NCBI GenBank assembly: GCA_049840395.1
Contig: JASGLD010000001.1
Location: 612,366-676,365 of the forward strand
Reading direction: 5' to 3'
From: Steroidobacteraceae bacterium
Lineage (GTDB): Bacteria > Pseudomonadota > Gammaproteobacteria > Steroidobacterales > Steroidobacteraceae
DNA length: 64,000 nt
Shown here: positions 33,262-52,027 of the stretch, in pieces
How positions within the stretch are numbered: position 1 is the first letter of the stretch
Layout of the letters: every line of letters begins with the position of its first letter
Position numbers and translations under genes: made by a program
Notes under the pieces: model-generated
Databases searched by the model: none
Seen by the model: only the letters and a program-made list of their open reading frames with translations
What the model was told of the DNA's origin: nothing

Positions 33262-35370
33262 TCACTGTTTAACGAACGTTATGCTGTCGACCCATGCAGC
33301 ATCGGCGCCCGAACTTCCGCTGCTGTCTTTCTGATATCGCCATTCAACATCATGCATGCCGAACGTGAGCGTTACCGTCTGTCGAGTCCATTGACCATTG
33401 GTTGCAATCAGGGATGTCCATTCCGAACCATCGATAAACAGCATCAGCCGATCGCAGCAACTCTCGGCATCAACTTTGGCGTAGTAACTGAGCTGGCCGG
33501 CCGAGAAGGGGGCTCGAAATCGAATGCTGCTGTATTGCGAGTTGCCGACCGCTCCGGATCGGATGCTCTTGGAGCCGGCATAAGCCGTTGTGGAATCGAG
33601 AATCCAACCGGCGCTGCTGTCTCTAGGTACGCTCCAGCCCGCCGCGCTGGAATTGGTTTCAAAAGATTCGCTGTAATTGACGAGAGGTTGCGGCAGCACT
33701 GACGAGTTATTGGGATCGCCGCCGAATAGCACTTCATCCTGGTCGTTATAGCCATCGCCGTCCGTATCTTTGTTCCAGGGATTGGTGTGATAGGTGATCA
33801 CTTCTTCCTTATCGTTCAAGTCATCGCCGTCGCTATCTGCTGCGGCCGGGTTGGTGGAGTAAGTGACAATCTCCTGATAGTCGGTGAGTCCATCAGCATC
33901 CGAGTCGACCAGCGTGGGATTGGAGTTGTGCAGATACTCCGCTGCATTGCTGACACCATCGCCATCCAAATCGGTGAGTGCATCTGCCGCATTCGAATCG
34001 CTGAAGCCATACAGCTGCTCCCACCACTTCGGCATCGAATCCTGATCTTGATCGCTGAAAGCCAGCTTGGTGAATGTGGTTGTATTGTTCACCACCTGTA
34101 CCAGATAGGCCTCTGATTGGCCGAATACCAGTCGAATGGGCTGCCCTGAGTACTGGTAGCTCGCCAGCACTGCGCGGCTGTCTTTATCTCGTATCTCAAC
34201 CAGATCGTAGATATCGAGGCTAACCAGTACGTTATCTTTCCATGCAACGTCCTTGATGGTCCGGCCCAGGTTTGCCGACCACGTCAGTCCGTTCTGGTTG
34301 TAGATGTCGCCGCTGCCGAGGAATACCTGCTGACCAGTGGGCGATACTCGGATCGGCGGTACGATGCTGTACGTCCCATGATAGGGCGTCTCACCGGCGG
34401 AGGTGATTTTGCCGGTGACCTGGTCGATCACTTCATAGTGAAGATCGGCGGGACTTTGGTCATCGCGGAAGAAGTAAACGCGCGAGTTCACCGCATCCCA
34501 CGCATACTCTCTCGAGTAGTAGTTCCACTCTTTCAGATCCATCAATATGCCGTTGCTGTTGAACACGTAGTGGCTCGACCATGCGCCGCTGGCGTCCTGT
34601 GCCAGCACGAACTTGCCCACTGCGGCTAAACCGTTTACAGCCAATGCGGTAGACGTGAAAGGAGTTTCGGCAGGGTTGCTCGATAGCACATCGATGTACT
34701 GAATGGCGCCGGTGCTATACCCCAGGTACAGCCGCTTATGGTCGCTCGAATAGGCCATCTTGGCAGGGGCGATCGTAGCGAAGCCTTGATTGATCCCGAC
34801 GATATAGGGATTGAGATAGGCGCCTGTCGCAATCGACCAGCGATATACGCGCTTGTTGGCAATGCTTAACAGATAGACCATATCGCCGTTGTTAATGACT
34901 TGGTCGGGTATGTAGTTCGGCACCGTGGCGCTGTAGTTACAGACCGTGCCATTGCCGTGCGACAGTAAGTAACAGGCCGAATCTTGTGGATAGGCATCCA
35001 GGCTCAACCCGGTGGTGCTGTCGCTCTGGCTCTTGCCGGCATTCCACGCATCTGGATAGCCGTCGTGATCGGTGTCCACCGATGCCGCTGCATCCAGGGG
35101 GAACGCATCCTGCGTGTTAGGTACACCATCGCCGTCGCTGTCGTCATTGGGGATGTAAGTATAAAACTGCACGGTGCCGTTATTGATGGTCAGTACCGCC
35201 ATCCTGGTATCCGAACCCACTACACGCAGTGCCTGGCCGGTATAGGTCAACTGTTCCAGATTGGTCAGGTTGGCTGCCAAACGTCGCAAGGTGGTTTGAC
35301 CGCTGGCCGTGGTCAGCGTTACCAGCGAGCCGTTGGCGGACCAGCGTGCATCGGTCACTTGCGATCCCAA
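33262..35370 (-). CDS. Distal part of a giant modular surface lipoprotein/adhesin gene; it reads through in frame from 38910 except for one TAA at 35473-35475
   Basis: Same frame as the upstream ORF. Module sequence (beta-propeller-like plus thrombospondin type-3 Ca-binding DxDxDGxxD repeats) continues uninterrupted. Ends in a unique ~170-aa C-terminal domain. Confidence 0.7.
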   Translation of the reverse strand: MGSQVTDARWSANGSLVTLTTASGQTTLRRLAANLTNLEQLTYTGQALRVVGSDTRMAVLTINNGTVQFYTYIPNDDSDGDGVPNTQDAFPLDAAASVDTDHDGYPDAWNAGKSQSDSTTGLSLDAYPQDSACYLLSHGNGTVCNYSATVPNYIPDQVINNGDMVYLLSIANKRVYRWSIATGAYLNPYIVGINQGFATIAPAKMAYSSDHKRLYLGYSTGAIQYIDVLSSNPAETPFTSTALAVNGLAAVGKFVLAQDASGAWSSHYVFNSNGILMDLKEWNYYSREYAWDAVNSRVYFFRDDQSPADLHYEVIDQVTGKITSAGETPYHGTYSIVPPIRVSPTGQQVFLGSGDIYNQNGLTWSANLGRTIKDVAWKDNVLVSLDIYDLVEIRDKDSRAVLASYQYSGQPIRLVFGQSEAYLVQVVNNTTTFTKLAFSDQDQDSMPKWWEQLYGFSDSNAADALTDLDGDGVSNAAEYLHNSNPTLVDSDADGLTDYQEIVTYSTNPAAADSDGDDLNDKEEVITYHTNPWNKDTDGDGYNDQDEVLFGGDPNNSSVLPQPLVNYSESFETNSSAAGWSVPRDSSAGWILDSTTAYAGSKSIRSGAVGNSQYSSIRFRAPFSAGQLSYYAKVDAESCCDRLMLFIDGSEWTSLIATNGQWTRQTVTLTFGMHDVEWRYQKDSSGSSGADAAWVDSITFVKQ

Positions 35371-35472
35371 CGATCCGGACCAGGTCAGTCCGTTCTGGTT
35401 ATAGATGTCGCCGCTACCGAGCAGAACGTACTGGCCGTTTACCGATACGCGAATGGGTGCCTGGATATTGTA

Positions 35473-38400
35473 TTAGCCGTGATAGGGTGTTTCGCCGGCA
35501 GAAGTAATTTTGCCGGTGACTTGATCGATCACTTCGTAGAGCAGATCGTTGGGGCTGATGCCATCGCGGAAGAAGTACACGCGCGAGTTCACCGCATCCC
35601 ATGCATGCTCGCTTGAGTAATAGCTCCCGGTTTGATCCGTCAGGACTTTACTGCTGTTGTATACGTAGTGATTTGCTGCATAGCTGCTGCCATCTTGAGC
35701 CAGCAAGAACTTGCCCGCAGCGACCAGGCCGGTTACGGCCATTGCCGTATTGGTAAACGGAATTTCGACTGGGCTGTTCGATAAGACGTCGATGTACTGA
35801 ATGGCACCCGTGCTATATCCCAAGTACAAGCGCTTGTGGTCACTTGAGTAAGCCATCTTGGTCGGTGCCAGCGTACTAAAGCCCTGATTGATGCCGACGA
35901 CATAGGGATTGAGATAGGCGCCTGTCGCAATCGACCAGCGATATACGCGCTTGTTGGCCGCGCTCAGCAGATAAATGGTGTCGCCATTATTGACGACCTG
36001 GTCCGGTACGTAATTAGGCAGAGTGGCGGCGTAGTTGCAGGTCGTGCCATTACCATGCTGAGGCAGGTAGCAAGCTGAGTCTTGCGGGTATGCATCCAAA
36101 CTCAATCCGGTGGTGCTATCGCTCTGGCTCTTGCCGGTGTTCCAGGCGTCTGGATAGCCGTCGTGATCGGTGTCCACCGATGCGGCAGGATCCAGTGGAA
36201 ACGCATCCTGCGTATTGGGTACACCATCGCCATCGCTATCGTCATTCGGGACATAGATATAGAACTGCACGGTGCCGTTATTAATGGTCAGCACCGCCAT
36301 CTTGGTATCCGAGCCCACGACACGCAGCGCCTGGCCGTTGTAAGTCAACTGTTCCAGGTTGGTTAAAGTGGATCCCAAGCGACGCAGTGTGGTCTGGTTG
36401 CTAGCTGTGGTCAGTGCCACCAGCGAGCCATTGGCGAACCAGCGTGCGTCGGTCACCTGCGATCCCAGCGAGCCCGACCAGGTCAATCCAGTTTGATTGT
36501 AAATATCGCCGCTGCCGAGCAGCACGTACTGACTGTTCGCTGATACTCGTATCGGCGGTTGGATGGAGTAAGCGCCATGATAGGGAGTCTCACCCACCGA
36601 GGTGATCTTGCCGGTGGTTTGATCGATCACTTCATAGTGCAGATCGTTGGGAACAGTGTCATCACGGAAGAAGTACACGCGGGAGGTGGTGGCATCCCAG
36701 GCATACTCTCTTGAGTAATAGTTCCAGTCTTTTTGATCGGTGACGACGGCATTGCGATCGAATATGTAGTGAGTCGCCCATGCGCCGCTGCTGTCCTGCG
36801 CCAGCACGTACTTGCCTACGGCCGTCAGACCACGGATGCTCATCGCCGTGCTGGCAAAGGGAATCTCCGCGACACTTGTCGAGGTCACATCAATGTATTG
36901 AATGGCGCCGGTGCTATACCCCAGGTACAGACGTTTGTGATCGCTGGAGTAAGCCATCTTGATGGGGGCCAGCGTGCTGAGGCCCTGATTGATGCCGACC
37001 ACATAGGGATTGAGATAGCTCGCAGTGGCAAGGGACCAGCGATACACGCGCTTGTTGGCGGTGCTTAGCAGATAAACCGTATCGCCATCGTTGATCACCT
37101 GATCCGGTATGTAATTGGGCATGGTGGCGCCGTAATTACAGTTCACGCCATCGCCATGCTGCGGTAGATAGCAGGCGGAATCTTTCGGATACGCATCCAG
37201 CGTCAAGCCGGTGGTGCTATCGCTCTGCGTTTTGCCGGGGTTCCAGCTATCCGGATAGCCATCCCCATCTGTGTCCAGCGATGCCGCAGGGTCCAGTGGG
37301 AATGCATCCTGCGTGTTGGGCACGCCATCGCCATCGCTGTCGTTATTGGGAATGTAAATATAAAACTGCACGGTGCTGTTATTGATCGTCAGCACCGCCA
37401 TCTTGGTGTCCGAACCCATTACGCGCAGCGCCTGGCCGTTGTAAGTCAACAGTTCCAGGTTGGTCAGAGTGGGCCCCAGGCGACGCAGCGTGGTCTTGTT
37501 GCTGGCTGTGGTCAGTGTCACCAGCGAGCCATTGGCGAACCAGCGTGCATCGGTTACTTGCGACCCCAGAGAGTCCGACCACGTCAATCCGGATTGGTTG
37601 TAAATATCGCCGCTGCCGAGCAGGACGTACTGACCATTCACCGACACGCGGATGGGCGGCAGGATGTTGTACGAGCCGTGATAGGGAGTTTCACCGGCGG
37701 AAGTAATCTTGCCGGTGACCTGGTCAATCACTTCATAGTGCAGATCGTTGGGACTTTGGGCATCGCGGAAGAAGTACACCCGTGAGTTGGCGGCATCCCA
37801 GGCGTACTCTCGTGAATAGTAGTTCCAGTCTTTTGAATCCGTCACCGTGCCAGTGCTATTGAACACATAGTGGGTTGCCCATGCACCGCTGCCGTCCTGC
37901 GCCAGCATGAACTTGCCCACGGCTGTCAGGCCACGAACGCTCAGTGCCGTACTGGCAAACGCGACTTCGGCGGTATTCGTGGACGTAACATCAATATATC
38001 GAATCGCCCCGTTGTCATAGCCAAGATACAAGCGCTTATGGTTGCTCGAGTAACTCATCGTGATTGGGGGCAAGCCATTGAAGCCGGTGGTATAGGCATC
38101 CAGATAGCGTTCTTGAGCAAGCGACCACCGAAAAATCAGGTTGTTGGCATTGTTCAATAGATAAACGATGTCTTGATCGTCATAAACCACTTTGTCAGGC
38201 ACATAGTTTGGCAGCTCGGACATGACCTCGAAGGTGCCGGCGACCGAACCGACGGTGACGCGCACCTGGGTTGTTTTCGCATAAGTTGCGGCCGCCTTTA
38301 CTCTGACGATCAATGTTTGCGCAGTACCGATCGTTCCGGCTGCGCTGGTAAACGATCCGCCATTGATTGAATACTCGCCGTTTTCAATGCTGATCGGCGC

Positions 38401-38910
38401 CGGAGCATTGGTGCCCGCAATGATTACGCTGTTCGATGTGATCCATGCGCCACGTATTGCGTTAAAGCTTTTTTGAAAAGAGAACGCATCGGGCGTGGTA
38501 TCTGCCTCCAGGGTGGTGGCAGTAAAGGTTGCGGATATGCCGCCCACAGTCAGCACGGCACTGCGCGCCGTAGAAAACTGATTCGAAGAAGTCAGGCGAA
38601 CTGTGATCTTCTGATTGTTGGTAACAGAGCCTGCGGCAGCGGTAAAAGCGCCGGCATCAATCGAATACTCTCCGCCTGTTATCGAAACCGGTGTGCTCGC
38701 ATCAATGCCGGAGATGACAGTCTCATTGGAGGTGACGGTGCTCGATAAGGCCGTTCCAGACTGGGCACTGAAGGAAAAAGCATTGGGTGTTGTATCTGGT
38801 GGGGCTGGGGTTTGACTCTGGCTGCTGCTCTCTCCACCAGCGCCGCCACCACAGCCAAACAGAAGAGCGAATAGTCCGAGCGCAATCAAACGAAAAATCA
38901 GCTTCGCCAT
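35473..38910 (-). CDS. Giant modular surface lipoprotein/adhesin, N-terminal 1145 aa
   Basis: Lipobox (LLFGCGGG). Two ~95-aa Ig-like domains, then ~330-aa modules with TSP3-type motifs (DSDGDGVPNTQDAFPLDPAASxDTDxDGYPD). The modules are nearly identical at nucleotide level. Confidence 0.8.
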   Translation of the reverse strand: MAKLIFRLIALGLFALLFGCGGGAGGESSSQSQTPAPPDTTPNAFSFSAQSGTALSSTVTSNETVISGIDASTPVSITGGEYSIDAGAFTAAAGSVTNNQKITVRLTSSNQFSTARSAVLTVGGISATFTATTLEADTTPDAFSFQKSFNAIRGAWITSNSVIIAGTNAPAPISIENGEYSINGGSFTSAAGTIGTAQTLIVRVKAAATYAKTTQVRVTVGSVAGTFEVMSELPNYVPDKVVYDDQDIVYLLNNANNLIFRWSLAQERYLDAYTTGFNGLPPITMSYSSNHKRLYLGYDNGAIRYIDVTSTNTAEVAFASTALSVRGLTAVGKFMLAQDGSGAWATHYVFNSTGTVTDSKDWNYYSREYAWDAANSRVYFFRDAQSPNDLHYEVIDQVTGKITSAGETPYHGSYNILPPIRVSVNGQYVLLGSGDIYNQSGLTWSDSLGSQVTDARWFANGSLVTLTTASNKTTLRRLGPTLTNLELLTYNGQALRVMGSDTKMAVLTINNSTVQFYIYIPNNDSDGDGVPNTQDAFPLDPAASLDTDGDGYPDSWNPGKTQSDSTTGLTLDAYPKDSACYLPQHGDGVNCNYGATMPNYIPDQVINDGDTVYLLSTANKRVYRWSLATASYLNPYVVGINQGLSTLAPIKMAYSSDHKRLYLGYSTGAIQYIDVTSTSVAEIPFASTAMSIRGLTAVGKYVLAQDSSGAWATHYIFDRNAVVTDQKDWNYYSREYAWDATTSRVYFFRDDTVPNDLHYEVIDQTTGKITSVGETPYHGAYSIQPPIRVSANSQYVLLGSGDIYNQTGLTWSGSLGSQVTDARWFANGSLVALTTASNQTTLRRLGSTLTNLEQLTYNGQALRVVGSDTKMAVLTINNGTVQFYIYVPNDDSDGDGVPNTQDAFPLDPAASVDTDHDGYPDAWNTGKSQSDSTTGLSLDAYPQDSACYLPQHGNGTTCNYAATLPNYVPDQVVNNGDTIYLLSAANKRVYRWSIATGAYLNPYVVGINQGFSTLAPTKMAYSSDHKRLYLGYSTGAIQYIDVLSNSPVEIPFTNTAMAVTGLVAAGKFLLAQDGSSYAANHYVYNSSKVLTDQTGSYYSSEHAWDAVNSRVYFFRDGISPNDLLYEVIDQVTGKITSAGETPYHG

Positions 38911-39619: not shown

Positions 39620-39707
39620 CGTCATCCCCGCGCAGGCGGGGATCCAGCAATAAAGCGTCGCAACGCGACACATCTACTACTGGATGCCCGCCTGCGCGGG
39701 CATGACG
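39620..39707. repeat. ~90-bp TIR palindromic element, copy 2 (compensatory base changes relative to copy 1)
   Basis: CGTCATCCCCGCGCAGGCGGGGATCCAG...CTGGATGCCCGCCTGCGCGGGCATGACG. Confidence 0.7.
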
Positions 39708-39770
39708 GGTTCTGGTGCTTCAGCTATTAGAGATGGGTTTTAAACGTTCCGATAAAATGTCTACTGGCGT

Positions 39771-42334: not shown

Positions 42335-42362
42335 ACCCCCGGCCCGGCGATGTTGCTTATCG
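42335..42362. repeat. Truncated right end of the ~150-bp cassette-array repeat (AAATACCCCCGGCCCGGCGATGTT), marking the left edge of the accessory island
   Basis: Same terminal motif as repeat copies A, B and D. It sits 12 bp after the methyltransferase stop. Confidence 0.55.
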
Positions 42363-42376
42363 AAGATATTGCTCCG

Positions 42377-44659
42377 TTAAAAAGGAATGTCGTCATCAAA
42401 CTCGTCGGTTCTGTCTTCGATGACAGGATTCTGGTCAATGATGGGTCTAAATTCCTGCAGGGCCAACGGGGGATGCGCTGCGCGAAACGTGGTTCGAAAC
42501 TCGCTTTGATCATTCAGTCGAATGAGAACGGGATTTTCGCAACTTGAAGCTTTTCCAAAGAAGACTGCATGTCGTTCTGGCAGTGAAGATAATGTGCTTG
42601 CGTAATCGCGCCCAATGTAATTAGCCAAGAATTCCTTTCCTGTTTCATCGAATGTCCGCATGGCAAACACTGTGTTGCATTGATTAAGGATTGTCTTTGT
42701 AACGTTAGCGGTACGCTGAGTTATTAATAAACACCCAAGCCCATACTTTCTCCCTTGTAGAATGGCACGAGCTGTTCCGCTGGTTGCATTCTTGTCACCT
42801 TCATTTACTACGGAGTTCCACTCCGGGATCAACGAGTGAGCCTCTTCATATACAAGGCAAACGCGGGCTGTCGGCGACATTTTGGTGGAAAGAACCGAAA
42901 GAGTTGATTCTGAAATTATTTGCGTAATTTCAACGGGCGTCACTGAGAATAGTCCGGCACGACTTCGCCACTCGTTACCTACTTTGTACTGGCTTGGTTC
43001 GCGTTGCTGTTTTGTTGCGACGAAGCTTGACGGGTTATATATCTTGAGCGGACGATTATTGTTATCGCTTAAAAAGTCAGAAATATCTGCGTAAATGGCA
43101 TCGCGCAGATTGGGTAATGATCCGCCATGCTCCGGATTGTTATCTAGCTCTTCACGATCTTTCTCAGAGGCTGCTTGTAGCTTCGCTAAGCAATGCTCTT
43201 CATAAGTGGAATCGTAAAAGTCATTCAATTCTTGTTCGTATTGATTCGTAAGGTCAAGACAAATGACCTTTATGCCTTCCGCCATGATTCGTTCAATCAA
43301 TTCGATGGCTAGCATTGATTTTCCAATGCCAAGAATTCCTAGAATAGCGGTGTTGTGTGTAACTAGATCGCTGATGCTCTTAATCTTTGCATGGAAGTTA
43401 GTCTCAGGAAAATGGCCAACCGAATTTATATTAACTTGGTATTCGGATCGCTTTTCAAGATATACGGGAGTGTTCAGTGTAGGTAACCAATTGCATTGCG
43501 AGAACTTAGAAAAGGCGTCATTCCAAACGCCGATTTGCTGCGCTTGTCCTCGCAAATATCCATAAGTATTCTTTTGTTGAACAATTTCTTCTTTTGTTAG
43601 GCCACCTACTATCTGATAGAGCACCTTATTTTGCCCAACCTTAGTAGAGACTAGACGTCCCTCCTCAAGCTCTGAGTTTTGGACTATCTCAAAGTATAGT
43701 CGCTCTATTGTCGTGTCTGGGGCGACCAAGCCAACTATGCTGGTTTGAGAATCTCTGGATAAGTTCTCAATACGGCAGATTTTATCGAGTATGTCGTCCT
43801 TAAGTTTATATACAGTCTCGTCTATAGGTGAGGCATCGATAGCTGAGTTACTTACTGCTGATAGATTTTTTAGTTCCACCGCACGAATAAGGATGCCTTC
43901 TGCCCGACCTACAAAATCCAAGGCGGCGACAAGCTTTTTTGGGCCGTGCTTATCACTGATATAAAGTAGGTCATATTTATTAATATCTCCTTCATGCTGT
44001 TGGCGAAGCAGCACAATTCCTGGATCTTGGAAAGCAACTACTTCGCCAATAGCGCCGTCGAAAACGTTGTTCGTGAATGTGCGCTTTATTTTATTAAATC
44101 CGCCAACTGTAAAATTTCCAAGCGACCACCAAACAGTTGTTCCGGTAACCATGCCTATAACGACTGCCTCTATCCAAGACTCTGCGTGAAAGCAAAAAAT
44201 TGAAAAAAGAACCAAGGGGGTATAGATGTACTCAGGCTGGCCGATTAGATCGAGTCCTATTCGGATTTTATTCGAAAGTTCTTTAGCCCACTCTGCATGC
44301 GAAGAATTTAGAGAAATGGTGAGGATGCCAAAGAACCCGACGACGAGGCTCGGTGCCATTGCTAGAACAAATCCCCATTGTTGATTAGCCGACCAGATGG
44401 GCCATTTGTTGACAAGTAATAGTGATATTGCTGCCGGTATCGCGTACGAAATTGCATCTACTGGTTTTACGTAGAATGGGGTTGCTAGTTTTGAACCTAT
44501 TAGCACTGAGAGTAGAGCTGAATATGCCCAAAAGCCCTTGTCACCCAAAGGCGGATATGGTGTGCCAAACAGGTAGTTGCATGCTATGAACACAACAATC
44601 AAGTCGATGCATAGTGATAAAAGGCGCTGTGGCTGGGTCAGTGCGAAATCTTTTTTCAT
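42377..44659 (-). CDS. HerA/FtsK-superfamily (DUF87-like) P-loop ATPase with an N-terminal polytopic membrane domain; low GC, likely horizontally acquired
   Basis: 760 aa. ~6 TM helices, a central beta-rich region, Walker A GILGIGKS, Walker B LVYEEAH and a HerA-type C-terminal motif LLITQRTANVTKTILNQCNTVF. GC is far below neighbours. Confidence 0.85.
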   Translation of the reverse strand: MKKDFALTQPQRLLSLCIDLIVVFIACNYLFGTPYPPLGDKGFWAYSALLSVLIGSKLATPFYVKPVDAISYAIPAAISLLLVNKWPIWSANQQWGFVLAMAPSLVVGFFGILTISLNSSHAEWAKELSNKIRIGLDLIGQPEYIYTPLVLFSIFCFHAESWIEAVVIGMVTGTTVWWSLGNFTVGGFNKIKRTFTNNVFDGAIGEVVAFQDPGIVLLRQQHEGDINKYDLLYISDKHGPKKLVAALDFVGRAEGILIRAVELKNLSAVSNSAIDASPIDETVYKLKDDILDKICRIENLSRDSQTSIVGLVAPDTTIERLYFEIVQNSELEEGRLVSTKVGQNKVLYQIVGGLTKEEIVQQKNTYGYLRGQAQQIGVWNDAFSKFSQCNWLPTLNTPVYLEKRSEYQVNINSVGHFPETNFHAKIKSISDLVTHNTAILGILGIGKSMLAIELIERIMAEGIKVICLDLTNQYEQELNDFYDSTYEEHCLAKLQAASEKDREELDNNPEHGGSLPNLRDAIYADISDFLSDNNNRPLKIYNPSSFVATKQQREPSQYKVGNEWRSRAGLFSVTPVEITQIISESTLSVLSTKMSPTARVCLVYEEAHSLIPEWNSVVNEGDKNATSGTARAILQGRKYGLGCLLITQRTANVTKTILNQCNTVFAMRTFDETGKEFLANYIGRDYASTLSSLPERHAVFFGKASSCENPVLIRLNDQSEFRTTFRAAHPPLALQEFRPIIDQNPVIEDRTDEFDDDIPF

Positions 44660-44699
44660 ATGGTTTATCCGTAACCTCTCAGATACTTAATAGCCCGCT

Positions 44700-44880
44700 C
44701 CGCGGATGTCGCCGGGTCGGGGGATTGGGAGTATTTATCGAGCACACTGCGAGAGAGTGTAAAGCTACACTTTAACTATTTTTAAATCACCCGATCCACA
44801 GACTCGTCATTACGTTCTCGCGCTCCGCGCACCGCGGGCTCCGAGGAGCCCGCTGCACGACTCAGGGGATCGGGTCAATC
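44700..44880. repeat. attC-like/cassette-boundary palindromic region
   Basis: CCGCGGATGTCGCCGGGTCGGGGG and GGGCTCCGAGGAGCCC palindromes, related to the repeat ends elsewhere in the array. Confidence 0.4.
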
Positions 44881-44881
44881 A

Positions 44882-45166
44882 TCAACCCGCCTCAACCAGC
44901 GGCCGGATATAAACCGAATCCAAACGATTCACCGACTCTCGAACGAGGGTCATGGCGATCTCTACGACATCCGGAAAATAGCCCTGTTGTTTTGGGTCGC
45001 TGTCATCGGCGTATTCAAGCGCCACATACAGACATTGAAGTAAAGATTGCGCTTTTGAAAGCTGGGTGCGCTCGGCTTCAATCGCTTCGTGTAACGCTTG
45101 GTGACGGGAATTGTGAATAGAGTTTTTGGAAAGACGCTGTTTCGAAGTAGAATTTCGCTTAGCCAT
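44882..45166 (-). CDS. Cassette-like small hypothetical protein (94 aa)
   Basis: ORF bounded by repeats. No recognisable domain. Confidence 0.45.
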   Translation of the reverse strand: MAKRNSTSKQRLSKNSIHNSRHQALHEAIEAERTQLSKAQSLLQCLYVALEYADDSDPKQQGYFPDVVEIAMTLVRESVNRLDSVYIRPLVEAG

Positions 45167-45530
45167 GGTGACCTCGTTGATAGGTGACTTTGGTTAGGCG
45201 TTCGTCTCGGTGACAGCCGGGGCGGACGCCGCTTTTTGTGGGCTGTTCGTGCCGCGTGAATTCCCAAAATGCCTGGAGCAATCCGTGTCGGCGGCATGAG
45301 CTAATCCCCACACAATCATGCCAGATAACTGTATGGATAACCAGCTAAAAAGCTTAAGTGAATTCAATTCATCGGCGCGCAACTTCAGTTAAAACTTTTC
45401 TACTTCTTTATCTGCAAACTGAAAATCAACATCACGCTCATCGGGTTGTGATGTTTGGGAGCGAATGACTACATAAATACCTACGGATCGACGGCCCGGT
45501 GATGCTGACCGCCGGGGTACACTCCATTCA

Positions 45531-46067
45531 CTACGTGCAACGACTAAACGCTAGTCTTAATGCCGTTCCAATTTCTCCATGTGTACTAATTGCAGGAATC
45601 TTCAAATGCTGCTCGTCTGCGATTCCTCTATTTGAATATTCTTCAAGCCCCTCATAATGACTTGGCACAATCATGATTATTCCATCAGCCTGGGAGATAC
45701 TGCAGCTTTTCATGTCCTTAAAAAGTGCACGACGTGAGCGATAACCATACTTCTTAACTTGTTGCTCAATGCATCTATTGTAGTGGTTACTTGATTCATC
45801 ACGTATCTCCTCCGCCTGCTTGAGACTAAAGAAACGAGTTTTGTCTAGGGCGGAAACAATTGCTTGGCCCAGTGCATCATCAAGGCTACTCACCGATATA
45901 TCGACCGGCGCATACAATGGATCAGGCTGCCCCATGCGATAGGCAGAGTATGTCCACACTGATATGAATTTACTACTTGACGTCGCTATCGCTTGTTTTT
46001 CTCTAATTGGATCGAGAACAGTCGGACTAAATAGCGACGTCACTTTTTTCCTAATTTTCTCTAGCAT
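45531..46067 (-). CDS. Cassette-like hypothetical protein (178 aa), low GC
   Basis: A palindromic GC-rich repeat (ACGGCCCGG...CCGCCGGGGT) lies immediately downstream of the stop. Confidence 0.6.
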   Translation of the reverse strand: MLEKIRKKVTSLFSPTVLDPIREKQAIATSSSKFISVWTYSAYRMGQPDPLYAPVDISVSSLDDALGQAIVSALDKTRFFSLKQAEEIRDESSNHYNRCIEQQVKKYGYRSRRALFKDMKSCSISQADGIIMIVPSHYEGLEEYSNRGIADEQHLKIPAISTHGEIGTALRLAFSRCT

Positions 46068-46218
46068 TGAACGATCCTATTAGTCAGGCCTCCAAGAGTT
46101 ATTATTAATATACACCGGCACACCCCGTACTGGGTTGCTCTTCAAACCACCGTCATAATTAACTGCCCGCTGAATTTGCTGAATCTGCACAGCAGGAGTT
46201 TCCGCACACGACAACGGT

Positions 46219-46362
46219 GCTGGGCCGTCGGATCGGGGATTCAAGAAGAATAATCGAGAACTGACTTCGTCTACTTCACAAGATGCTTTCATCTCGCGGC
46301 ACTTAAGCAACTGCAGTTGATATATATCAAATACCCCCGATCCCCCGGCCAGGCGATGTTCT
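46219..46362. repeat. ~150-bp cassette-array repeat, copy A (attC-like)
   Basis: Shares ~80% identity with copies at 46951-47098, 51041-51198 and 52803-52957. Ends CCGGCCAGGCGATGTT. Spurious ORF 46080..46487 is its translation. Confidence 0.65.
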
Positions 46363-46532
46363 GTTCTCCCCGAAGGGAGCGAGACGATTGGGTAAGGCGA
46401 GAGGCATAGAACCGGAAGTACAAAGCAGTGCGGCGGCAGCGCTTGATCATCGAGCGCACATTGACCGACAATGTTCTGAGCGACCATTAAAATCGCAGCT
46501 TAGTCGCAAGCAGCACTCAGGGAGATAAAGAG

Positions 46533-46946
46533 ATGCCTACGCTCGAGCCCGTCGAATTAAAAGCATTCATCCCGGCAAAGGACTACCAACTTTCAATCCA
46601 ATTTTACCAAGACCTCGGTTTTACCTTGTGCTGGGGAGGCGAAGGCGAGCTTGCCTACTTCCATTACGGCGACCATGGCAATCACGGCAAAGTCGGTTTC
46701 CTGCTGCAACGTTTCTACGTCAAAGAATTCGCAGAAAACCTCATGATGCATCTCATCGTCAAAGACCTCGATGCATGGTGGGCGAACGTGCAAGATAAAA
46801 ATTTGGCGGAGAAATACGGCGTGAGAACGGAGCCGCCTGAGCTTCGGCCATGGGATATGACGGACTGTGTTATTTGCGATCCGTCGGGGGTTTTATGGCG
46901 GATCGCACAGGAAGATCAAGGAGAGGATTGGCGCGAACCGGCTTAG
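46533..46946 (+). CDS. VOC family (glyoxalase/bleomycin-resistance-like) protein; the only plus-strand cassette gene
   Basis: 137 aa with a beta-alpha-beta-beta-beta VOC-like pattern. A common integron cassette function. Confidence 0.65.
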   Translation: MPTLEPVELKAFIPAKDYQLSIQFYQDLGFTLCWGGEGELAYFHYGDHGNHGKVGFLLQRFYVKEFAENLMMHLIVKDLDAWWANVQDKNLAEKYGVRTEPPELRPWDMTDCVICDPSGVLWRIAQEDQGEDWREPA

Positions 46947-46950
46947 CAGT

Positions 46951-47098
46951 CGACATCGCCGGGCCGGGGGAGGGGACTCAAGAAGAGTAATCGAGAACTG
47001 ACTTCGCTTACTTCACAAGATGCTTTCGTCTCGCGGCACTTAAGCAACTGCAGTTGATATATATAAAATACCCCGATCCTCCGGCCCGGCGATGTTCA
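46951..47098. repeat. ~150-bp cassette-array repeat, copy B (attC-like)
   Basis: Terminal inverted repeats CATCGCCGGGCCGG ... CCGGCCCGGCGATG. It lies directly below the stop of 47109..47573. Confidence 0.65.
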
Positions 47099-47108
47099 CG
47101 TAGCATGT

Positions 47109-47573
47109 TCATAGGAGCGTAAGCACTCCATCCTCTATCGAGAACGGAGCGTCATTGACCGCAGTGATCTTTCCGTCGAAAGACAAACAAAGTTTGTGTT
47201 CGGGGTCCCAGCGGGGATCGACATGAATGCTGGCAAAGAGGTCTGAGTGAACGTTAAGAATGGCTGCTCCGACTTCGGTCAGCACCTGGGACCTAGCTAG
47301 GCCAGAGGGAACCTTCCAAAATCGAAGCCAATCGTTGGTCTCGGCATGCTTGTAGTGCCCATATATCAAATCCCAAATTTGCGAACCGTGAGTCTCGGCG
47401 AATGCCGCAAGCCTAGCCGCTAGATTGACCATCGCTTCAGTCGGCAAGGTCTCAATGTCGCAGTAAAGCTCAACGGGTAAAATACCAATCTCCGTCTCGA
47501 CGGAGTGTTCCCAAAGCCAGGTATCAAAGAGAGCTGGCCCGCGAGGTTGCTTGTGAAATTCAGAGAGCCGCAT
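47109..47573 (-). CDS. Cassette-like hypothetical protein (154 aa)
   Basis: ORF immediately upstream (in gene orientation) of repeat copy B. Confidence 0.6.
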   Translation of the reverse strand: MRLSEFHKQPRGPALFDTWLWEHSVETEIGILPVELYCDIETLPTEAMVNLAARLAAFAETHGSQIWDLIYGHYKHAETNDWLRFWKVPSGLARSQVLTEVGAAILNVHSDLFASIHVDPRWDPEHKLCLSFDGKITAVNDAPFSIEDGVLTLL

Positions 47574-47693
47574 AGTTTGAGTGAGCCACAGAATGAGACG
47601 CCCAACGCTGCTGATAAGCCGACGCGAAAGAGCGTAGCGATTGAGCGGTCGAACGACCGGAGGGAGTGAACTTGATTGGCTGGTTAGGTGCCT

Positions 47694-47927
47694 TCATGAC
47701 TTGGAGAGCGCAATAAACCATTTTTCAGGGTGCTTCGGGCATAACAGTTGTCCAGCCTCATCTTTCTTTCCTTCGCGGACAAGTTGAACAACTTTGTGAG
47801 CTTCCAGATGCCTTGGAATCTCAGGAAGTGATTCATTACAACAAGCAGCCAGCACGACATCGCGCAGGCGATACCAATCAGTTGACGATAAATCCGTATC
47901 GTTGAAACCACTGCTCATAGCGGGCAC
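47694..47927 (-). CDS. Possible small cassette ORF (77 aa)
   Basis: Only ORF in the 47.6-48.1 kb gap. Weak support. Confidence 0.3.
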   Translation of the reverse strand: MPAMSSGFNDTDLSSTDWYRLRDVVLAACCNESLPEIPRHLEAHKVVQLVREGKKDEAGQLLCPKHPEKWFIALSKS

Positions 47928-48095
47928 CTAACGAATTAACTAACGGGCGCGCCGTCTTTCGGCGCGTCTGCGTTAAGTGATTTGTTAGTGCTCTTAGCTT
48001 TCATCAGTTTGAACCTCAATTTCAAGCTCGTCGTTTCTTCCGAGCTTCAATACGTAAGCGAACTTGCCAGAACCCAACAGAGGACAACGGTGCCG

Positions 48096-48160
48096 GGCCG
48101 TCGGATCGTAGGTGTCCTTGCGCGGACCGACGGCCCGGCACCGCTCACCCTGTGTCGGAG
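48096..48160. repeat. GC-rich palindrome (GTGCCGGGCCGTCGG...CCGACGGCCCGGCAC), attC-like
   Basis: A 15-nt inverted repeat directly downstream of the 48184..48615 stop. Related to the left end of repeat copy A. Confidence 0.5.
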
Positions 48161-48183
48161 CGATTTGCGGGCTGCAGCCATCA

Positions 48184-48615
48184 CTACTCAATGTAGAGAT
48201 GAGCAAGTAAATGACGCTTTTCCTTATCTGCAAGTACGTCGATGGATCCCCCGTTAGGTGCATCCTTGGGCTTACCTAGATAGTGCCACGCCACTTCGAA
48301 ATTTGGCCCCTTGTTTTCAGACATGGGGTGGTCATGGGCATGCTTGTAGTAGGGAGTTTCCTCCAATGTATATGGCTCACTCACCAGCAATTTTGGGAAA
48401 TCAGAAGGATCTATCTCGAACGCACAAGTTACCAATGTGTCTGTAAAGCCCAGTGACGCACAGTCAGCAGATGAGACCGACCATGGCACAGTATTCAGGT
48501 CAAAAAGATATCCGACTCCCATTCGCTCTTGCCACCAAGAAAATGTGAGGCCCAGTGCGAACAGTGTAAGTGTGGCGCCTAGCCAAAGCTTCCATCTCTT
48601 AAGCTGCTGTAGCAT
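48184..48615 (-). CDS. Cassette-like membrane-anchored hypothetical protein (143 aa)
   Basis: N-terminal TM (LWLGATLTLFALGLTFSWW). Confidence 0.6.
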   Translation of the reverse strand: MLQQLKRWKLWLGATLTLFALGLTFSWWQERMGVGYLFDLNTVPWSVSSADCASLGFTDTLVTCAFEIDPSDFPKLLVSEPYTLEETPYYKHAHDHPMSENKGPNFEVAWHYLGKPKDAPNGGSIDVLADKEKRHLLAHLYIE

Positions 48616-48627
48616 TTGTCTCTAGTT

Positions 48628-48695
48628 GCCTAACGCCGTGTATTAGACGACAAGTCGCGAGTCTGCGCCGGGCCGTCTCGAAGCGCTGGTTAGGT
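48628..48695. repeat. Canonical integron attC-like site (68 bp): GCCTAAC ... GTTAGGT
   Basis: Inverse core RYYYAAC (GCCTAAC) and core GTTRRRY (GTTAGGT) as inverted repeats. The core overlaps the TAA stop of 48690..49019 (ACCTAAC on the coding strand). Confidence 0.6.
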
Positions 48696-49019
48696 TGCTT
48701 TTGGTTGCGCATTAAAGAAGTGTACGAGATCAGCAGCGGTCTTGACCTTGCCATATAGCGGGTTCGCTTCCATCTTATCCATCGAGCGAGCTGTCCGTTG
48801 CGCAATCTCGGAGGCAATATCCATATCGAGATCTTCGCTGTCTATTGGCAAATCCTGGCCAAAGACATCCGATGCTCGGATTGGGATCTGATACTTCGAT
48901 CCTAAGTGCTCTTGTAGTTGCTCATAAACCGCGCGCACGACCCAGGTATCAACCGAGCGCTCATCGAATGAGCGAGCGAACTCACAAATGGACTCACCTT
49001 TTCTAGAAGCTGCAAGCAC
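48690..49019 (-). CDS. Cassette-like hypothetical protein (109 aa), possibly an ACP-like fold
   Basis: The acidic IDSEDLDMDI segment vaguely resembles a phosphopantetheine attachment region. Low confidence on function. Confidence 0.55.
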   Translation of the reverse strand: MLAASRKGESICEFARSFDERSVDTWVVRAVYEQLQEHLGSKYQIPIRASDVFGQDLPIDSEDLDMDIASEIAQRTARSMDKMEANPLYGKVKTAADLVHFFNAQPKAT

Positions 49020-49059
49020 GAACCCGCGACCCGGCGATGCTCATCCAAAACGCATTGCT

Positions 49060-49560
49060 CTACTCGCCGTACTCAAATGAGTGCAGAGCATGAAGCGCGC
49101 TAACCACGTGCGGCCCCCAATGAAGTCGAAACATTTCACGCCAACTGTACACAGCGGCCTCGACATGCCCAGCATCAAACAACCAGAGGCCTGACGAGAT
49201 GTCCGCGTAGATGTCTTGGAAGTCGTCGAACAGATCGCCACAACCTGGCTCCGTATCTGTATCGGGCAAGGCGGGTTCGCACAGAACCCAATAATACTGA
49301 AAAGGCAAAGCTGATAAATTCTGTGCTACCACTTGGCGCTGAACGTCAGTTGTACGAGGAGCCTCAGGAGACCGTTTGAATTCGACTTCCGGTAGGTAGA
49401 GCGCTGAGTTGTAAACAGAAGATAGATGACGAAGCGCTTCGACCTTGAATTGCTTCGGAGCTGCGCCATCGTGGTCCGTTTTGCACCACTTTACGAATTG
49501 TCGCGCATGCTTCTCAAACTGAGCTATTGCATCTGATTGAGTCATGATGCGTTCGAACAA
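49060..49560 (-). CDS. Cassette-like hypothetical protein (166 aa)
   Basis: Separated from the previous ORF by only 40 bp, which contains a repeat-end remnant (ACCCGGCGATG). Possibly a two-gene cassette. Confidence 0.6.
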   Translation of the reverse strand: MFERIMTQSDAIAQFEKHARQFVKWCKTDHDGAAPKQFKVEALRHLSSVYNSALYLPEVEFKRSPEAPRTTDVQRQVVAQNLSALPFQYYWVLCEPALPDTDTEPGCGDLFDDFQDIYADISSGLWLFDAGHVEAAVYSWREMFRLHWGPHVVSALHALHSFEYGE

Positions 49561-49617
49561 GTAACGAACGGACGTGGGTGTCCGGGCATGTTTATTACTG
49601 AGGACACTCGACGACTC

Positions 49618-50202
49618 CTAGAACAGGAATTCCTGTACGGCTAATGATGCGACAATTCGTCCGTTTACAGTCGCTGGCTCAAATCGCCATTGCTTCATGC
49701 TTTCGAGCGCCGCCGCAGTAAGCGCGGGCGAGGAAGTCTCGAGCACGACCTGATCACTTGCAACGCCGCTAGTCGTAATGATGTAGCCGATTACAACCTT
49801 ACCTGACTTAGGCATACCGTCAGCATCCAATTGCCGACCCGGCAAACTGCCCGCAAGAACTTTAGCTCTATTCATAATCGAATCGTTAAGAACGTCGGCA
49901 AAGATGTACTTGCACCCATAGGCTTTCTTAAGCGCTTGGTCCATTTGACTCGTTTCCGCCGTGGCACGATTGAATATCGTGCGCGCCAGCATCGACTCGG
50001 TGGATTCCTTTTTCGCACCGGACTTGCTGGGCGACTCACAGGCAGCATTAGCCGAAATACAGCAGGATAGTGCGGCAATTCCAGCAAAGACTCGTATCAT
50101 GATTTTCATGCAAATAGGCCTAACGTTCCCAGTAAGCTGAACAGTGTCAGGTCGTCGATCCGTATGTATGTATTTTAATGGCGAGGGTGAAGTACACCAC
50201 AT
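49618..50202 (-). CDS. Secreted TonB C-terminal-domain-like protein; probable true start at MKIMIRVFAGIAALSCC (~50109)
   Basis: Signal peptide. The C-terminal region resembles TonB_C (VVLETSSPALTAAALESMKQWRFEPATVNGRIV). Confidence 0.6.
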   Translation of the reverse strand: MWCTSPSPLKYIHTDRRPDTVQLTGNVRPICMKIMIRVFAGIAALSCCISANAACESPSKSGAKKESTESMLARTIFNRATAETSQMDQALKKAYGCKYIFADVLNDSIMNRAKVLAGSLPGRQLDADGMPKSGKVVIGYIITTSGVASDQVVLETSSPALTAAALESMKQWRFEPATVNGRIVASLAVQEFLF

Positions 50203-50279
50203 AAATACCTACGGATCGACGGCCCGGCATCGTTTCCCGCGGCATCATTTCCCGAATCGCCTCCAATTGCTTGTTAAGC
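50118..50279. repeat. attC-like site (162 bp): GCCTAAC ... GTTAAGC
   Basis: RYYYAAC and GTTRRRY cores at the two ends. GTTAAGC overlaps the TAA stop of 50274..51005. Internal ACGGATCGACGGCCCGG matches the 45470 repeat. Confidence 0.55.
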
Positions 50280-51005
50280 ATCCGCACTTTTTGGTCTCTT
50301 CCAAATGAGAAAATTGGCGTTGCTCGTGCTCCCCATCGCTTTGATTACGGCTTCGTCGTTCAATACATTGAAACGAGATTGAAGCTGCTCAAGGAGTTTG
50401 AATTTCACTGCCGCATCGTGCGGGATCAAGCAGCCTTTCTGGTTGCCATCCATGATTGCAAAGAACACATCCTCTGCATATGGGCCGTCATCTGTAGTAA
50501 TGATTCTGATCTCATCTACGTCATCCCAACGAATTCGCTCGTTTATCGAGCCTACCGTCCTCACAACACCCACATCATCGATTTCGATCGTTTCTGTTTC
50601 AGTCCCGGGTTCCGCCCCGAATCCGAACCTGGCGCGTCGCAGATAGGCAGCAGCTGGAAAGCCGAATGCGACAAGCGCAAGGATGGCATTGATCACAGAT
50701 GGGTTTGATCGGGATTCGGAAACCGCTACGCTATCAACGATTTCGGTGAACAGATACCACGCGGTGACAACAAGTACCGCGGACGCAAGGAAGCTGCCTA
50801 TTACCCTCTGAATACGACCGTGGACGAAACAGACGGCCGCGATACCAAGGCAAAAGGTGCCAAACAAGTAGTGACCGATCGGCCTATCCGCGCTCGGCGC
50901 GATGAGAATCATCACCATGCCGAACAAACCCGCGAAGAACGAGAGAATTAATCGAAGTGCAAGACCATTGCCGCCTCGTGTCGGCTGTGTTTCTTCGGGG
51001 ATCAT
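50274..51005 (-). CDS. Cassette-like membrane protein (243 aa; 4 TM plus a cytoplasmic domain)
   Basis: Hydrophobic N-terminal half and a soluble acidic C-terminal half. Confidence 0.6.
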   Translation of the reverse strand: MIPEETQPTRGGNGLALRLILSFFAGLFGMVMILIAPSADRPIGHYLFGTFCLGIAAVCFVHGRIQRVIGSFLASAVLVVTAWYLFTEIVDSVAVSESRSNPSVINAILALVAFGFPAAAYLRRARFGFGAEPGTETETIEIDDVGVVRTVGSINERIRWDDVDEIRIITTDDGPYAEDVFFAIMDGNQKGCLIPHDAAVKFKLLEQLQSRFNVLNDEAVIKAMGSTSNANFLIWKRPKSADA

Positions 51006-51040
51006 TGTGATATTGCTGGTAGATTGATTAGTGCGGAATC

Positions 51041-51198
51041 AGCATCGCCGGGCCGGAGGATCGGAGGATTCAAAAAGAACAATTGAGAACTGGCTTCGCC
51101 TGCTTCACAAGATGCTTTCGTCTCGCGGTACTTAAGAAACTGCAGTTGATATGTATCAATAGCCACGATTCACGGCCCGCTGCAACTGCTTGTTAGCC
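51041..51198. repeat. ~150-bp cassette-array repeat, copy C (attC-like), ending with GTTAGCC
   Basis: Aligned with copies A, B and D. GTTAGCC lies 19 bp before the GNAT stop. Confidence 0.6.
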
Positions 51199-51216
51199 GC
51201 TGGCATGTCGGTGATG

Positions 51217-51699
51217 CTAGCTCTCTGATGCAAAATGATCGAGCTCCGGCCCTGCGAGTCTGAAATACAGCTTGCCCGGATTCGTTTGGGCTCCGAGTTG
51301 ACGATAGAAGCTCAATGCTTCCAGGTTAGTTTCGTCGACGGTCCAGTCGAAGCGGCTACACGATTTGGAAACAGCATAGCGAGCTACGAAGTGCATCAAG
51401 GCCTTGCCAATACCTCCGCCGCGACAATCAGAGGCCACAAACAGCTCCTTCATGAAGAGCTGTCCGCGCTCCTTGGGTGCGGGATAAAGAATAGAGATTG
51501 AGGCCAAGCCGACTGCGCGTACACCGTCGAGCGCGATGACTAGGTGCACACCTGAGTGCTCACCCAGTATGTTCTTGATAAGGTTCTGTCTCACCTCGTG
51601 ACGTTCAGACGCATTCGGGCCGTTGTAATGAGCGCTCATGTCGAGCATGAGGTCTGTTACGGTTTCCAAGTATTCATGCGTGTAGAACTGAATGTGCAT
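51217..51699 (-). CDS. GNAT family N-acetyltransferase
   Basis: Acetyl-CoA binding motif (RGGGIGKALMHFV). Confidence 0.8.
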   Translation of the reverse strand: MHIQFYTHEYLETVTDLMLDMSAHYNGPNASERHEVRQNLIKNILGEHSGVHLVIALDGVRAVGLASISILYPAPKERGQLFMKELFVASDCRGGGIGKALMHFVARYAVSKSCSRFDWTVDETNLEALSFYRQLGAQTNPGKLYFRLAGPELDHFASES

Positions 51700-51934
51700 G
51701 ATTGGCGGCTAACTAGAAGTAGAGGCCGGTGATACGGGCCCTAAATGTCCCTTTACAAAGGTACTTATATCAGTGTTGTGCACCTTGGTTCTCCAGAATT
51801 CCTTGTCGAACAATCGGCTGCTGCTTTGTAGCTGAGCGTATCGAAAAAAGCAAAAGGGACTTGTGAGTGGTCGCTCCTGGCCGGTATCTGCACTGCAATG
51901 GAGTCGGGCCATCGGATCATGGGTGTTTGGCGAT

Positions 51935-52010
51935 TGATGTATCAAGCCCAGTCAACATCTTGCCGCAGCGCATAGCTGCTATATTCCAAATGCACCACCC
52001 GGCGACGTTC
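51935..52010. other. Remnant of the 3' end of a phyH-like gene, duplicated from 54812-54885
   Basis: ~75 bp are ~90% identical to the 3' end plus ~20 bp downstream of the PhyH gene. The reverse complement encodes ...RVVHLEYSSYALRQDVDWA*. Confidence 0.6.
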
Positions 52011-52027
52011 ATGCGAGGAGATTGACC

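Follow-up and report, generated by a model that had tools for sequence, protein, structure and literature searches.

The HerA ATPases that most resemble the protein described here come from two kinds of system. SIR2-HerA (Nezha/Gao19) and DUF4297-HerA are island defence genes in which the effector sits on the side of the HAS barrel. The HerA-NurA complex of archaea and some bacteria is a hexameric double-stranded DNA (dsDNA) translocase that feeds a nuclease. To our knowledge, HerA ATPases that act in defence are known solely from two-gene systems, in which they serve as scaffold or motor and a second protein is the effector. FtsK and SpoIIIE as well as TrwB and VirD4 belong to the same superfamily and combine N-terminal transmembrane (TM) segments with a hexameric, DNA-pumping P-loop ATPase. 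We analysed a stretch of 64,000 nucleotides (the window) from a Steroidobacteraceae bacterium (GenBank assembly GCA_049840395.1, contig JASGLD010000001.1, positions 612,366 to 676,365), in which a single gene joins a HerA-type ATPase to an N-terminal membrane domain and to a C-terminal tip identical to the docking peptide of SSB (the protein that binds single-stranded DNA). We conclude that this HerA gene is a horizontally mobile accessory gene and an intact member of a large unnamed family. Judging from the genomic context, a role of some kind in defence or against mobile DNA is probable. We give an even chance to the more specific proposal that the protein is a membrane-bound, one-protein defence module directed against phages or plasmids.

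The gene and the parts of its product are listed below, with residue numbers referring to the protein.

42377..44659, minus strand: complete gene for a 760-aa membrane-anchored HerA-family ATPase (ATG start, stop codon at 42377-42379; from the list of open reading frames, ORFs)
44072..44659, minus strand: helical membrane domain, aa 1-196, about six predicted TM helices and two amphipathic helices
43430..44071, minus strand: beta-rich region with HAS barrel, aa 197-410 (DSSP strands 200-401; Foldseek)
42476..43429, minus strand: RecA-type HerA ATPase domain, aa 411-728 (Pfam DUF87, PADLOC HerA, PDB profiles, Foldseek)
43316..43339, minus strand: Walker A motif (P-loop) GILGIGKS, aa 441-448 (conservation in 58 sequences)
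42836..42856, minus strand: Walker B motif LVYEEAH, aa 602-608 (conservation in 58 sequences)
42380..42475, minus strand: disordered, poorly conserved linker and tail, aa 729-760 (predicted local distance difference test, pLDDT, of 41-43 over aa 742-760; low conservation over approximately aa 729-752)
42380..42400, minus strand: tip FDDDIPF, aa 754-760, with the same sequence as the C-terminal docking peptide of SSB

An earlier note on this DNA, written from the letters alone, had placed a solitary 760-aa HerA/FtsK-family ATPase at the edge of a cassette array. We recovered this ORF at exactly 42377..44659 on the minus strand, apparently as the last cassette. The NCBI entry for the identical protein, from a Steroidobacteraceae metagenome-assembled genome, is annotated as 'DUF87 domain-containing protein' and nothing else. 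NCBI protein comparison returned more than 100 full-length homologs at 50-72% identity.

The ATPase assignment was supported by profiles and by structure prediction. Pfam PF01935 (DUF87, the HerA central domain) matched with 29.5 bits (gathering cut-off: 23.2), and the PADLOC HerA models matched down to E = 9e-23. When 58 full-length homologs (50-72% identity) were aligned, the Walker A residues G441, I442, L443, G444, G446 and K447 were invariant and S448 was at least 90% conserved; E605, E606, A607 and H608 of Walker B were invariant, and likewise R637, K638, Q648 and R649. All family-invariant residues are present in this copy. The HerA/DUF87 hallmarks that the earlier note had read from the translation, with the caution that the Walker motifs might prove degenerate on careful alignment, are thus intact.

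The full-length AlphaFold2 model (pLDDT 83) placed a beta-rich region at aa 200-426, an alpha/beta ATPase up to aa 728 and a disordered tail at aa 742-760. Together with a helical N-domain of about six TM helices, this bears out the domain order proposed before. In a Foldseek search of the PDB, the top 50 matches were all HerA chains (E 1e-16 to 1e-12, ~440-630 alignment columns), among them SIR2-HerA (8wod/8wiv/8wld), HerA-DUF4297 (9c1m/8ziq) and archaeal HerA of Sulfolobus and Thermococcus (4d2i, 9x1m). The profile matches of the ATPase domain in the PDB also went to HerA chains. Alignments of 490-630 columns to 4d2i, 8wod and 9c1m spanned the whole HerA chains (458-585 residues) including the N-terminal barrel, so that residues ~200-728 correspond to a complete HerA with HAS barrel and motor. 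Structurally, as far as the model goes, the protein is a member of the HerA clade of FtsK-HerA P-loop ATPases.

The layout of an N-terminal TM domain and a motor expected to be hexameric is also that of FtsK, SpoIIIE and the coupling proteins of type IV secretion systems (T4SS), and would suit a transmembrane DNA pump, that is, a hexameric channel for transfer, uptake or expulsion of DNA comparable with conjugative coupling proteins, FtsK/SpoIIIE/TraB or archaeal Ced-type import. Weak matches confined to the P-loop point in the same direction (TrwB_AAD_bind 19.5 bits, cut-off 20.5; TraG P-loop; CedD). However, the matches to T4SS ATPases are restricted to the P-loop and stay below cut-offs, and by structure the protein falls into the HerA clade with its HAS barrel, not with FtsK or VirD4. 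The earlier note had considered that the homologs might be VirB4/TraC-type conjugation ATPases of intact T4SS loci. The NCBIfam models for these and for CedD scored far below their cut-offs (TraC 14.2 bits vs 567; VirB4_plasma 16.7 vs 590). We sampled 85 non-redundant homolog loci and clustered their neighbours, and used the gene and Pfam tables that accompanied ten homolog loci (L001-L010). Neither these tables nor the neighbour families common to at least 3 of the 85 loci contained a T4SS, relaxase, pilus or competence gene, and no cell-division context was found in the tables or among recurrent neighbours. Plasmid copies are rare, with two full-length homologs among 72,556 plasmids. We therefore rejected the T4SS/VirB4 assignment, and a DNA pump of any of these kinds appears improbable.

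The first ~200 residues contain strongly hydrophobic segments at aa 9-35 and 94-119 and a moderately hydrophobic one at aa 149-168. AlphaFold2 predicted eight helices over aa 9-196, and the N-domain modelled alone reached a pLDDT of 87. The charge distribution suggests six TM helices with both termini inside (N-in/C-in). Polar residues within this domain are strikingly constant: D68, H158, S129 and T60 are invariant across the family alignments, and Q9 and E164 are invariant in an alignment of 30 N-domains and conserved to at least 90% among the 58 aligned homologs. The domain occurs throughout the family. This family-wide presence and the invariant polar residues suggest that it is more than an anchor. 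Structure searches gave no informative fold relatives, and a profile search with the membrane domain retrieved nothing but 12 short fragments, among them a split gene, and revealed no further fusions.

The most unusual feature of the protein, overlooked in the earlier note, is its SSB-type tip. The C-terminal peptide of SSB (SSB-Ct) is DDDIPF (PMC5872125); it binds ExoI, RecJ, RecO, DnaG and many other partners (PMC5872125, PMC3159472, PMC4846377, PMC7913777) and directly binds and stimulates ExoI and RecJ (PMC3159472, PMC4846377). The family consensus closes with FDDDIPF; across the 58 sequences F760 never varies, and conservation of D757 and P759 is at least 90%. The motif [DE][DE][IVLM]PF ends ~95 of 120 close homologs (~80%), and among 113 diverse full-length representatives the strict motif was present in 18 and near-variants, by eye, in ~8. 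It closes 43 of 90 locus-encoded homologs as opposed to 1 of 963 neighbouring ORFs, and the HerA ORF is its sole carrier among the 495 ORFs of the window. The one non-HerA carrier among the neighbours is a 230-aa ORF at L071:442-1134 (plus strand) ending in ...AEEVPF; it might encode a paralog of SSB or some other protein with such a tip.

In a rough neighbour-joining tree built without the tails, tip-bearing members were scattered over most deep branches. Of 12 Bacteroidota members, 10 had LPF or LSF as their tip; of 14 tip-bearing members from Gammaproteobacteria, 13 had I/V/M-PF. Bacteroidota LPF tips occurred at no fewer than two separate positions of this tree. Published SSB tips vary in the same residue, with DLPF in Flavobacterium and Psychroflexus, DIPF in five gammaproteobacteria and DVPF in Desulfotalea (PMC3991886). 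The residue before the proline thus tracks the SSB variant of the host lineage, which supports the view that the tail mimics the host's own SSB tip; the pattern reflects few independent events on a rough tree. As far as we know, this would be the first natural non-SSB protein with an SSB docking peptide tuned to the host lineage.

A tail of this kind could make the protein an end-processing machine that borrows nucleases: the HerA ring would sit on DNA ends, the tails would recruit RecJ, ExoI and RecQ, and the membrane domain would be a mere anchor where foreign DNA enters, so that invading DNA is degraded without suicide of the cell. The identity of the tail with a peptide that binds and stimulates ExoI and RecJ, its tracking of the host SSB variant, the lack of a dedicated nuclease partner gene and a close structural relationship to the HerA of the HerA-NurA resection complex all fit such borrowing. 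On the other hand, the invariant polar residues of the membrane domain exceed what an anchor needs. A second, non-immune explanation for the tip is that it serves, for example, as a protease degron on a membrane-associated DNA-maintenance or repair factor of mobile elements; in Streptococcus mutans, the SSB C-terminal DDLPF has been reported as a ClpXP recognition motif (PMC5143411). A generic degron, however, does not predict that the tip tracks the host SSB variant.

With a threshold of E <= 1e-3 the family comprises 2441 representatives, of which 543 (clusters at 50% identity) remain at E <= 1e-30; most are 700-760 aa long with the N-domain aligned. Its distribution is patchy and covers Proteobacteria, Bacteroidota, Planctomycetota, Verrucomicrobiota, Chloroflexota, Firmicutes, Cyanobacteria and others. 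Phage genomes contained no homolog. Neither PADLOC v2 nor NCBIfam has a model for a membrane-fused, partner-less HerA, and we found neither a membrane-fused HerA nor an SSB-Ct on HerA in the literature covered, which did not extend to the superfamily survey of Iyer et al. 2004. The suggestion that this is not a described system is upheld by these searches. A 'transmembrane' mention for Gao19 of S. thermophilus was discarded as a precedent, as it refers to the Sir2 partner and not to HerA.

Among the neighbour families of the 85 loci no conserved partner gene was found, with the exception of restriction-modification (R-M) genes in a subset. Upstream genes of 341-343 aa in Cycloclasticus and Alcanivorax had looked like a conserved partner and were rejected because they are not homologous to each other. 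In 18 of the 85 loci (21%) the same strand carries an R-M gene within 300 bp, and in 23 loci there is one within 5 kb. Pfam confirmed these neighbours as HsdR, HsdS, HsdM, type IIG enzymes (Eco57I/TaqI_C), an N6_N4 methylase, and an SNF2 helicase together with a DUF1156 methylase. A typical arrangement, seen in three loci (L022, L090 and L092), is hsdR-hsdS-[TM-HerA]-hsdM. The stop codon of one gene overlaps the start codon of the next in L090 and L092, and 5-14 bp separate the genes in L022. The L092 copy is split, and its N-domain is 60% identical to that of the present protein. The R-M-embedded relatives are probably co-transcribed with the R-M genes. For the R-M genes of these three loci and of L023, the Pfam check covers L022.

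Several of these loci hold additional genes. Two helicase genes (AAA_11/AAA_12 and UvrD) follow the membrane HerA gene in L092, and the hsdS-[HerA]-hsdM operon of L023 also contains Fic-like and RhuM-like genes, as read from the translations. An SNF2/NOV_C helicase gene lies upstream of HerA in both L065 and L071; a DUF1156 (+ DUF559) methylase gene directly follows HerA in L065, and a homologous gene of ~1000 aa lies ~2.5 kb further downstream in L071. Start and stop codons of adjacent genes overlap in both loci. The arrangement recalls DISARM/Hma-type systems, and the helicase-ATPase-methylase set may be a distinct multi-gene system that recruited the HerA ATPase.

Other defence-related and mobile genes were also found near homologs. 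One plasmid copy sits between AbiEi/AbiEii and two reverse-transcriptase genes, and PIN/MazE, RelB, serine recombinases, IS66 and T5orf172 occur at other loci. The relatives in R-M operons and beside abortive-infection (Abi) and reverse-transcriptase genes strengthen the earlier proposal of a candidate defence function. The description 'solitary' holds for the present gene and for most of the sampled closest homologs (53-68% identity), but not for the many relatives that lie inside R-M operons.

This context bears on both explanations of the tip given above. Several close homologs among housekeeping genes would suit a maintenance or repair factor. Against such a factor speak the patchy cross-phylum distribution and variable contexts, which are typical of accessory genes, and the 21% of loci directly beside R-M genes, with others next to Abi, reverse-transcriptase or toxin-antitoxin modules; we regard a non-immune role as quite unlikely. 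The R-M operons concerned are of Types I, IIG and III; their products make DNA ends, and a place within them is in turn what the borrowing of nucleases would lead one to expect. Yet fewer than half of the family members possess the tip, which is missing from 12 of the 18 that adjoin R-M genes, so that a mechanism based on recruitment by the tip cannot hold in general. Taken together, we consider degradation of invading DNA by borrowed nucleases the chief alternative, although on the unlikely side.

Returning to the one-protein defence module, we propose the following sequence of events. Like other HerA proteins, the protein would form a hexameric ring, here attached to the inner membrane so that the motor is on the cytoplasmic side. 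The motor would load on foreign or broken dsDNA and translocate it using ATP. The fused membrane domain would be the output, located on the face of the HAS barrel where NurA, Sir2 and DUF4297 dock in other systems, and the output may consist of membrane permeabilization (abortive infection) or of gating. That the membrane domain acts as the effector in this particular manner is a tentative proposal, in which we have less than even confidence. The six SSB-like tails may link the complex to the host network of SSB partners, either by drawing ExoI, RecJ or RecQ-type enzymes onto DNA that has been captured, or by baiting phage proteins that hijack SSB. In many relatives, the protein may be an accessory or back-up to restriction-modification.

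A fuller version treats the family as a new type of single-protein immune sensor-effector with mimicry of the host SSB tail as bait. Phage or plasmid proteins that hijack SSB, or SSB-partner enzymes on invading DNA, would engage the six tails, and the ATPase would then drive its own, structurally new membrane domain open, resulting in abortive infection or in DNA being expelled or blocked at the membrane. In R-M operons, the HerA protein would be a guard that fires once restriction has been overcome. As a whole, this reading strikes us as unlikely.

A number of observations weigh against a one-protein defence module. The link to phage or plasmid resistance is guilt by association with neighbours (R-M genes in 18 of 85 loci, Abi and reverse-transcriptase genes), and the sampled closest homologs mentioned above lie mostly among ordinary genes or mobile-element debris. 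The R-M embedding itself could stem from a shared integration hotspot and not from shared function. From the phage-defence model sets of PADLOC, generic HerA models and mad8 alone matched. No known pore or toxin resembles the membrane domain. The tip occurs in no more than about a quarter to a half of the family members and is accordingly not essential to a core mechanism. Finally, no clear promoter was found upstream of the HerA gene, and the attC site downstream of it is truncated.

The last point leads to the cassette array. An attC-type array of ~13 kb (window positions 42341-55500), with ORFs mostly on the minus strand, includes the HerA gene and extends to the right of it. It consists of imperfect palindromes that share the arms AACATCGCCGGGCC...GGCCCGGCGATGTT and lie 13-40 nt after the stop codons of small ORFs. 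The 14-mer arm occurred 22 times at up to three mismatches, compared with 9.2 +/- 3.2 in shuffles, and a typical site folded at -32.3 kcal/mol (z = -5.05). We conclude that these palindromes are attC-type sites. No integron integrase was found in the 64-kb window with an IntI1 sequence that served purely as a probe, and Pfam revealed no tyrosine recombinase among the flanking ORFs on either side of the array. Since the window holds no integrase, the array is a cluster of attC sites lacking integron integrases (CALIN type) within these limits, and on this evidence the HerA gene appears to be its last cassette. That integron cassettes can carry defence genes has been documented (bioRxiv 10.1101/2024.07.02.601686); the preprint does not mention HerA or DUF87. 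Boundary and leader elements of the HerA cassette are as follows.

44789..44875: attC-like imperfect palindrome (inverted repeat I6), the upstream cassette boundary between a 94-aa ORF and the HerA cassette
44733..44771, minus strand: possible weak promoter of the gene itself, TTTACA-N19-ATAAAT, from a reading of the sequence
44705..44732: degenerate single arm in the 5' leader of the HerA gene, resembling the array attC arm (alignment with array repeats)
42336..42360: half attC site at the array end, 17 nt past the HerA stop codon, abutting a methyltransferase gene of 61% G+C content (GC)

The hairpin at 44789-44875 had a single-strand folding energy of -27.3 kcal/mol (z = -4.6), and none of 200 shuffles folded as well; it differs in sequence subtype from the other array sites. 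The arm at 44705-44732 formed no stable hairpin (z = -1.06). At the downstream half-site, GGCCCGGCGATGTT at 42341-42354 matches the array arm in 14 of 14 positions, but the partner arm is absent and the fold is unremarkable (z = -0.75). The gene had been described as bounded by array repeats on both sides, which is correct upstream, where the attC-like hairpin is genuine, whereas downstream there is a half-site only. We found no attC-like hairpins beside close homologs, which indicates that the capture as a cassette is particular to the source genome.

Base composition gave a similarly divided result. The HerA gene has a GC of 44.0% (window average: 55%). The left-hand genes, a Na+/H+ exchanger and an S-adenosylmethionine (SAM) methyltransferase, have 61%, and the cassette genes to the right 43-53%. 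A drop of ~20 points below both flanks, as stated in the earlier note, is therefore approached on the left, core-genome side (17 points) and does not hold on the right (0-9 points).

A consensus scan for promoters upstream of the HerA gene yielded nothing convincing, and it passed over TTTACA-N19-ATAAAT because of the spacing. The palindrome AGTGTAgcttTACACT overlaps this possible promoter. A perfect 6-bp inverted repeat, AGTGTA-gctt-TACACT, is present in the leader at 44756-44771, over the possible -35 element, and may be a candidate operator for some regulator.

The half-site, the empty promoter scan and the missing integrase in the window would be in keeping with a decaying, non-functional relic at the eroded end of an array. 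In contrast, the reading frame is of full length and uninterrupted, all family-invariant residues are kept and the nearest homolog is 72% identical across 100% of the protein length. We hold a relic to be highly improbable.

The other ORFs identified in the array are listed here.

45531-46067: orphan CdiI immunity protein
46533-46946, plus strand: glyoxalase
49060-49560: DUF5063 protein
49618-50202: TonB_C protein
51217-51699: GNAT acetyltransferase
52028-52774: TauE

In addition, RidA/L-PSP and Rieske oxygenase genes at 53121-54729 form an apparent two-gene cassette in opposite orientation. The array contains at least two attC subtypes, one of ~141 nt (at 46214, 46951, 51043 and 52807) and a 74-nt repeat (at 51932 and 54811).

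Further repeats were observed in the window. Two large ORFs (702 and 1145 aa) at 33262-38910 on the minus strand contain four tandem units of ~1.1 kb (D1-D4) that are 72-81% identical. They probably encode a repetitive surface or adhesin-type protein and may be parts of a single gene that a frameshift or a break in the assembly has divided. At 15315-16129, a coding region contains internal direct repeats of ~320-390 nt (73-88% identical), which suggests another repeat-containing protein. A repeat of ~100 nt with two short hairpins is present at 28090-28191 and 39620-39720 (87-91% identical), with a shorter copy at 24696-24730; one of the copies is immediately to the left of the gene for the Na+/H+ exchanger, which borders the array side of the chromosome. 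It could be a miniature inverted-repeat transposable element (MITE) or similar to a repetitive extragenic palindrome (REP). A GC-rich palindromic element, CCCTCCCCCG(N5-6)CGGGGGAGGG followed by GGGTGGGGGC, is intergenic, occurs in both orientations and resembles a REP-type element. Its copies are located as follows.

10073-10115: GC-rich palindrome
57688-57743: GC-rich palindrome
57862-57906: GC-rich palindrome
60159-60201: GC-rich palindrome
60311-60355: GC-rich palindrome

If the proposed defence module is real, single-gene HerA defence would be widespread, with hundreds of clusters in many phyla, and a new membrane domain would take the position of the effector. An SSB docking peptide on a non-SSB protein would link immunity or R-M to the host's SSB interaction hub. 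The gene is small enough to travel as an integron cassette, which bears on the spread of defence genes.

Compared with described systems, SIR2-HerA and DUF4297-HerA provide the best matches both by structure (Foldseek) and by profile (PADLOC HerA), and they share the HAS barrel and the RecA core. The present protein differs from them in its fused N-terminal membrane domain, its C-terminal SSB-type tip and a sequence identity of 13-17%. No Sir2, DUF4297 or NurA neighbour was found in the window or among the families shared across the 85 loci. The NCBIfam HerA models scored far below their cut-offs (HerA_antiphage 49.9 bits vs 800; HerA_antiphage_2 47.7 vs 850; helicase_HerA 32.2 vs 970). With HerA-NurA the protein has the fold and type of motor in common (4d2i, 9x1m). 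Unlike in HerA-NurA, there is no NurA gene nearby and the protein is membrane-anchored, so that any nuclease would have to be borrowed through the tail. FtsK, SpoIIIE, TrwB and VirD4 belong to a different clade: the present protein has a HAS barrel, Pfam FtsK_SpoIIIE gave no match, and TrwB_AAD_bind stayed below cut-off with the P-loop alone.

Among defence systems with other NTPases, Tmn is a single-gene system based on a membrane-associated (KAP) P-loop NTPase; PADLOC gave no Tmn match. The PADLOC Mad8 profile matched aa 435-705 (E = 2e-10). Mad8 is the ATPase of MADS, a methylation-associated defence operon of eight genes (bioRxiv 10.1101/2023.03.30.534895). Its profile (314 positions) covers the ATPase region alone and neither the membrane domain nor the barrel.

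With SSB, the protein shares the identical hexapeptide DDDIPF at the end of a disordered, poorly conserved linker and the same lineage-specific I/L variation. In contrast to SSB, the tip is carried by a HerA ATPase and not by an OB-fold protein that binds single-stranded DNA, and the binding of partners is a prediction from sequence. A functional precedent is the T7 gp4 helicase, whose acidic, Phe-terminated tail resembles that of the phage SSB, T7 gp2.5.

The R-M operons have a parallel of their own. The PrrC anticodon nuclease of the EcoprrI hsd locus is an NTPase-containing back-up defence gene located between Type I R-M genes. PrrC belongs to an unrelated protein family and has a different effector. 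The membrane HerA gene, for its part, is a recurrent fourth gene in Type I R-M operons and in L022, L090 and L092 occupies a position between R-M subunit genes as PrrC does in EcoprrI, an analogy from which one may speculate that the HerA protein guards R-M.

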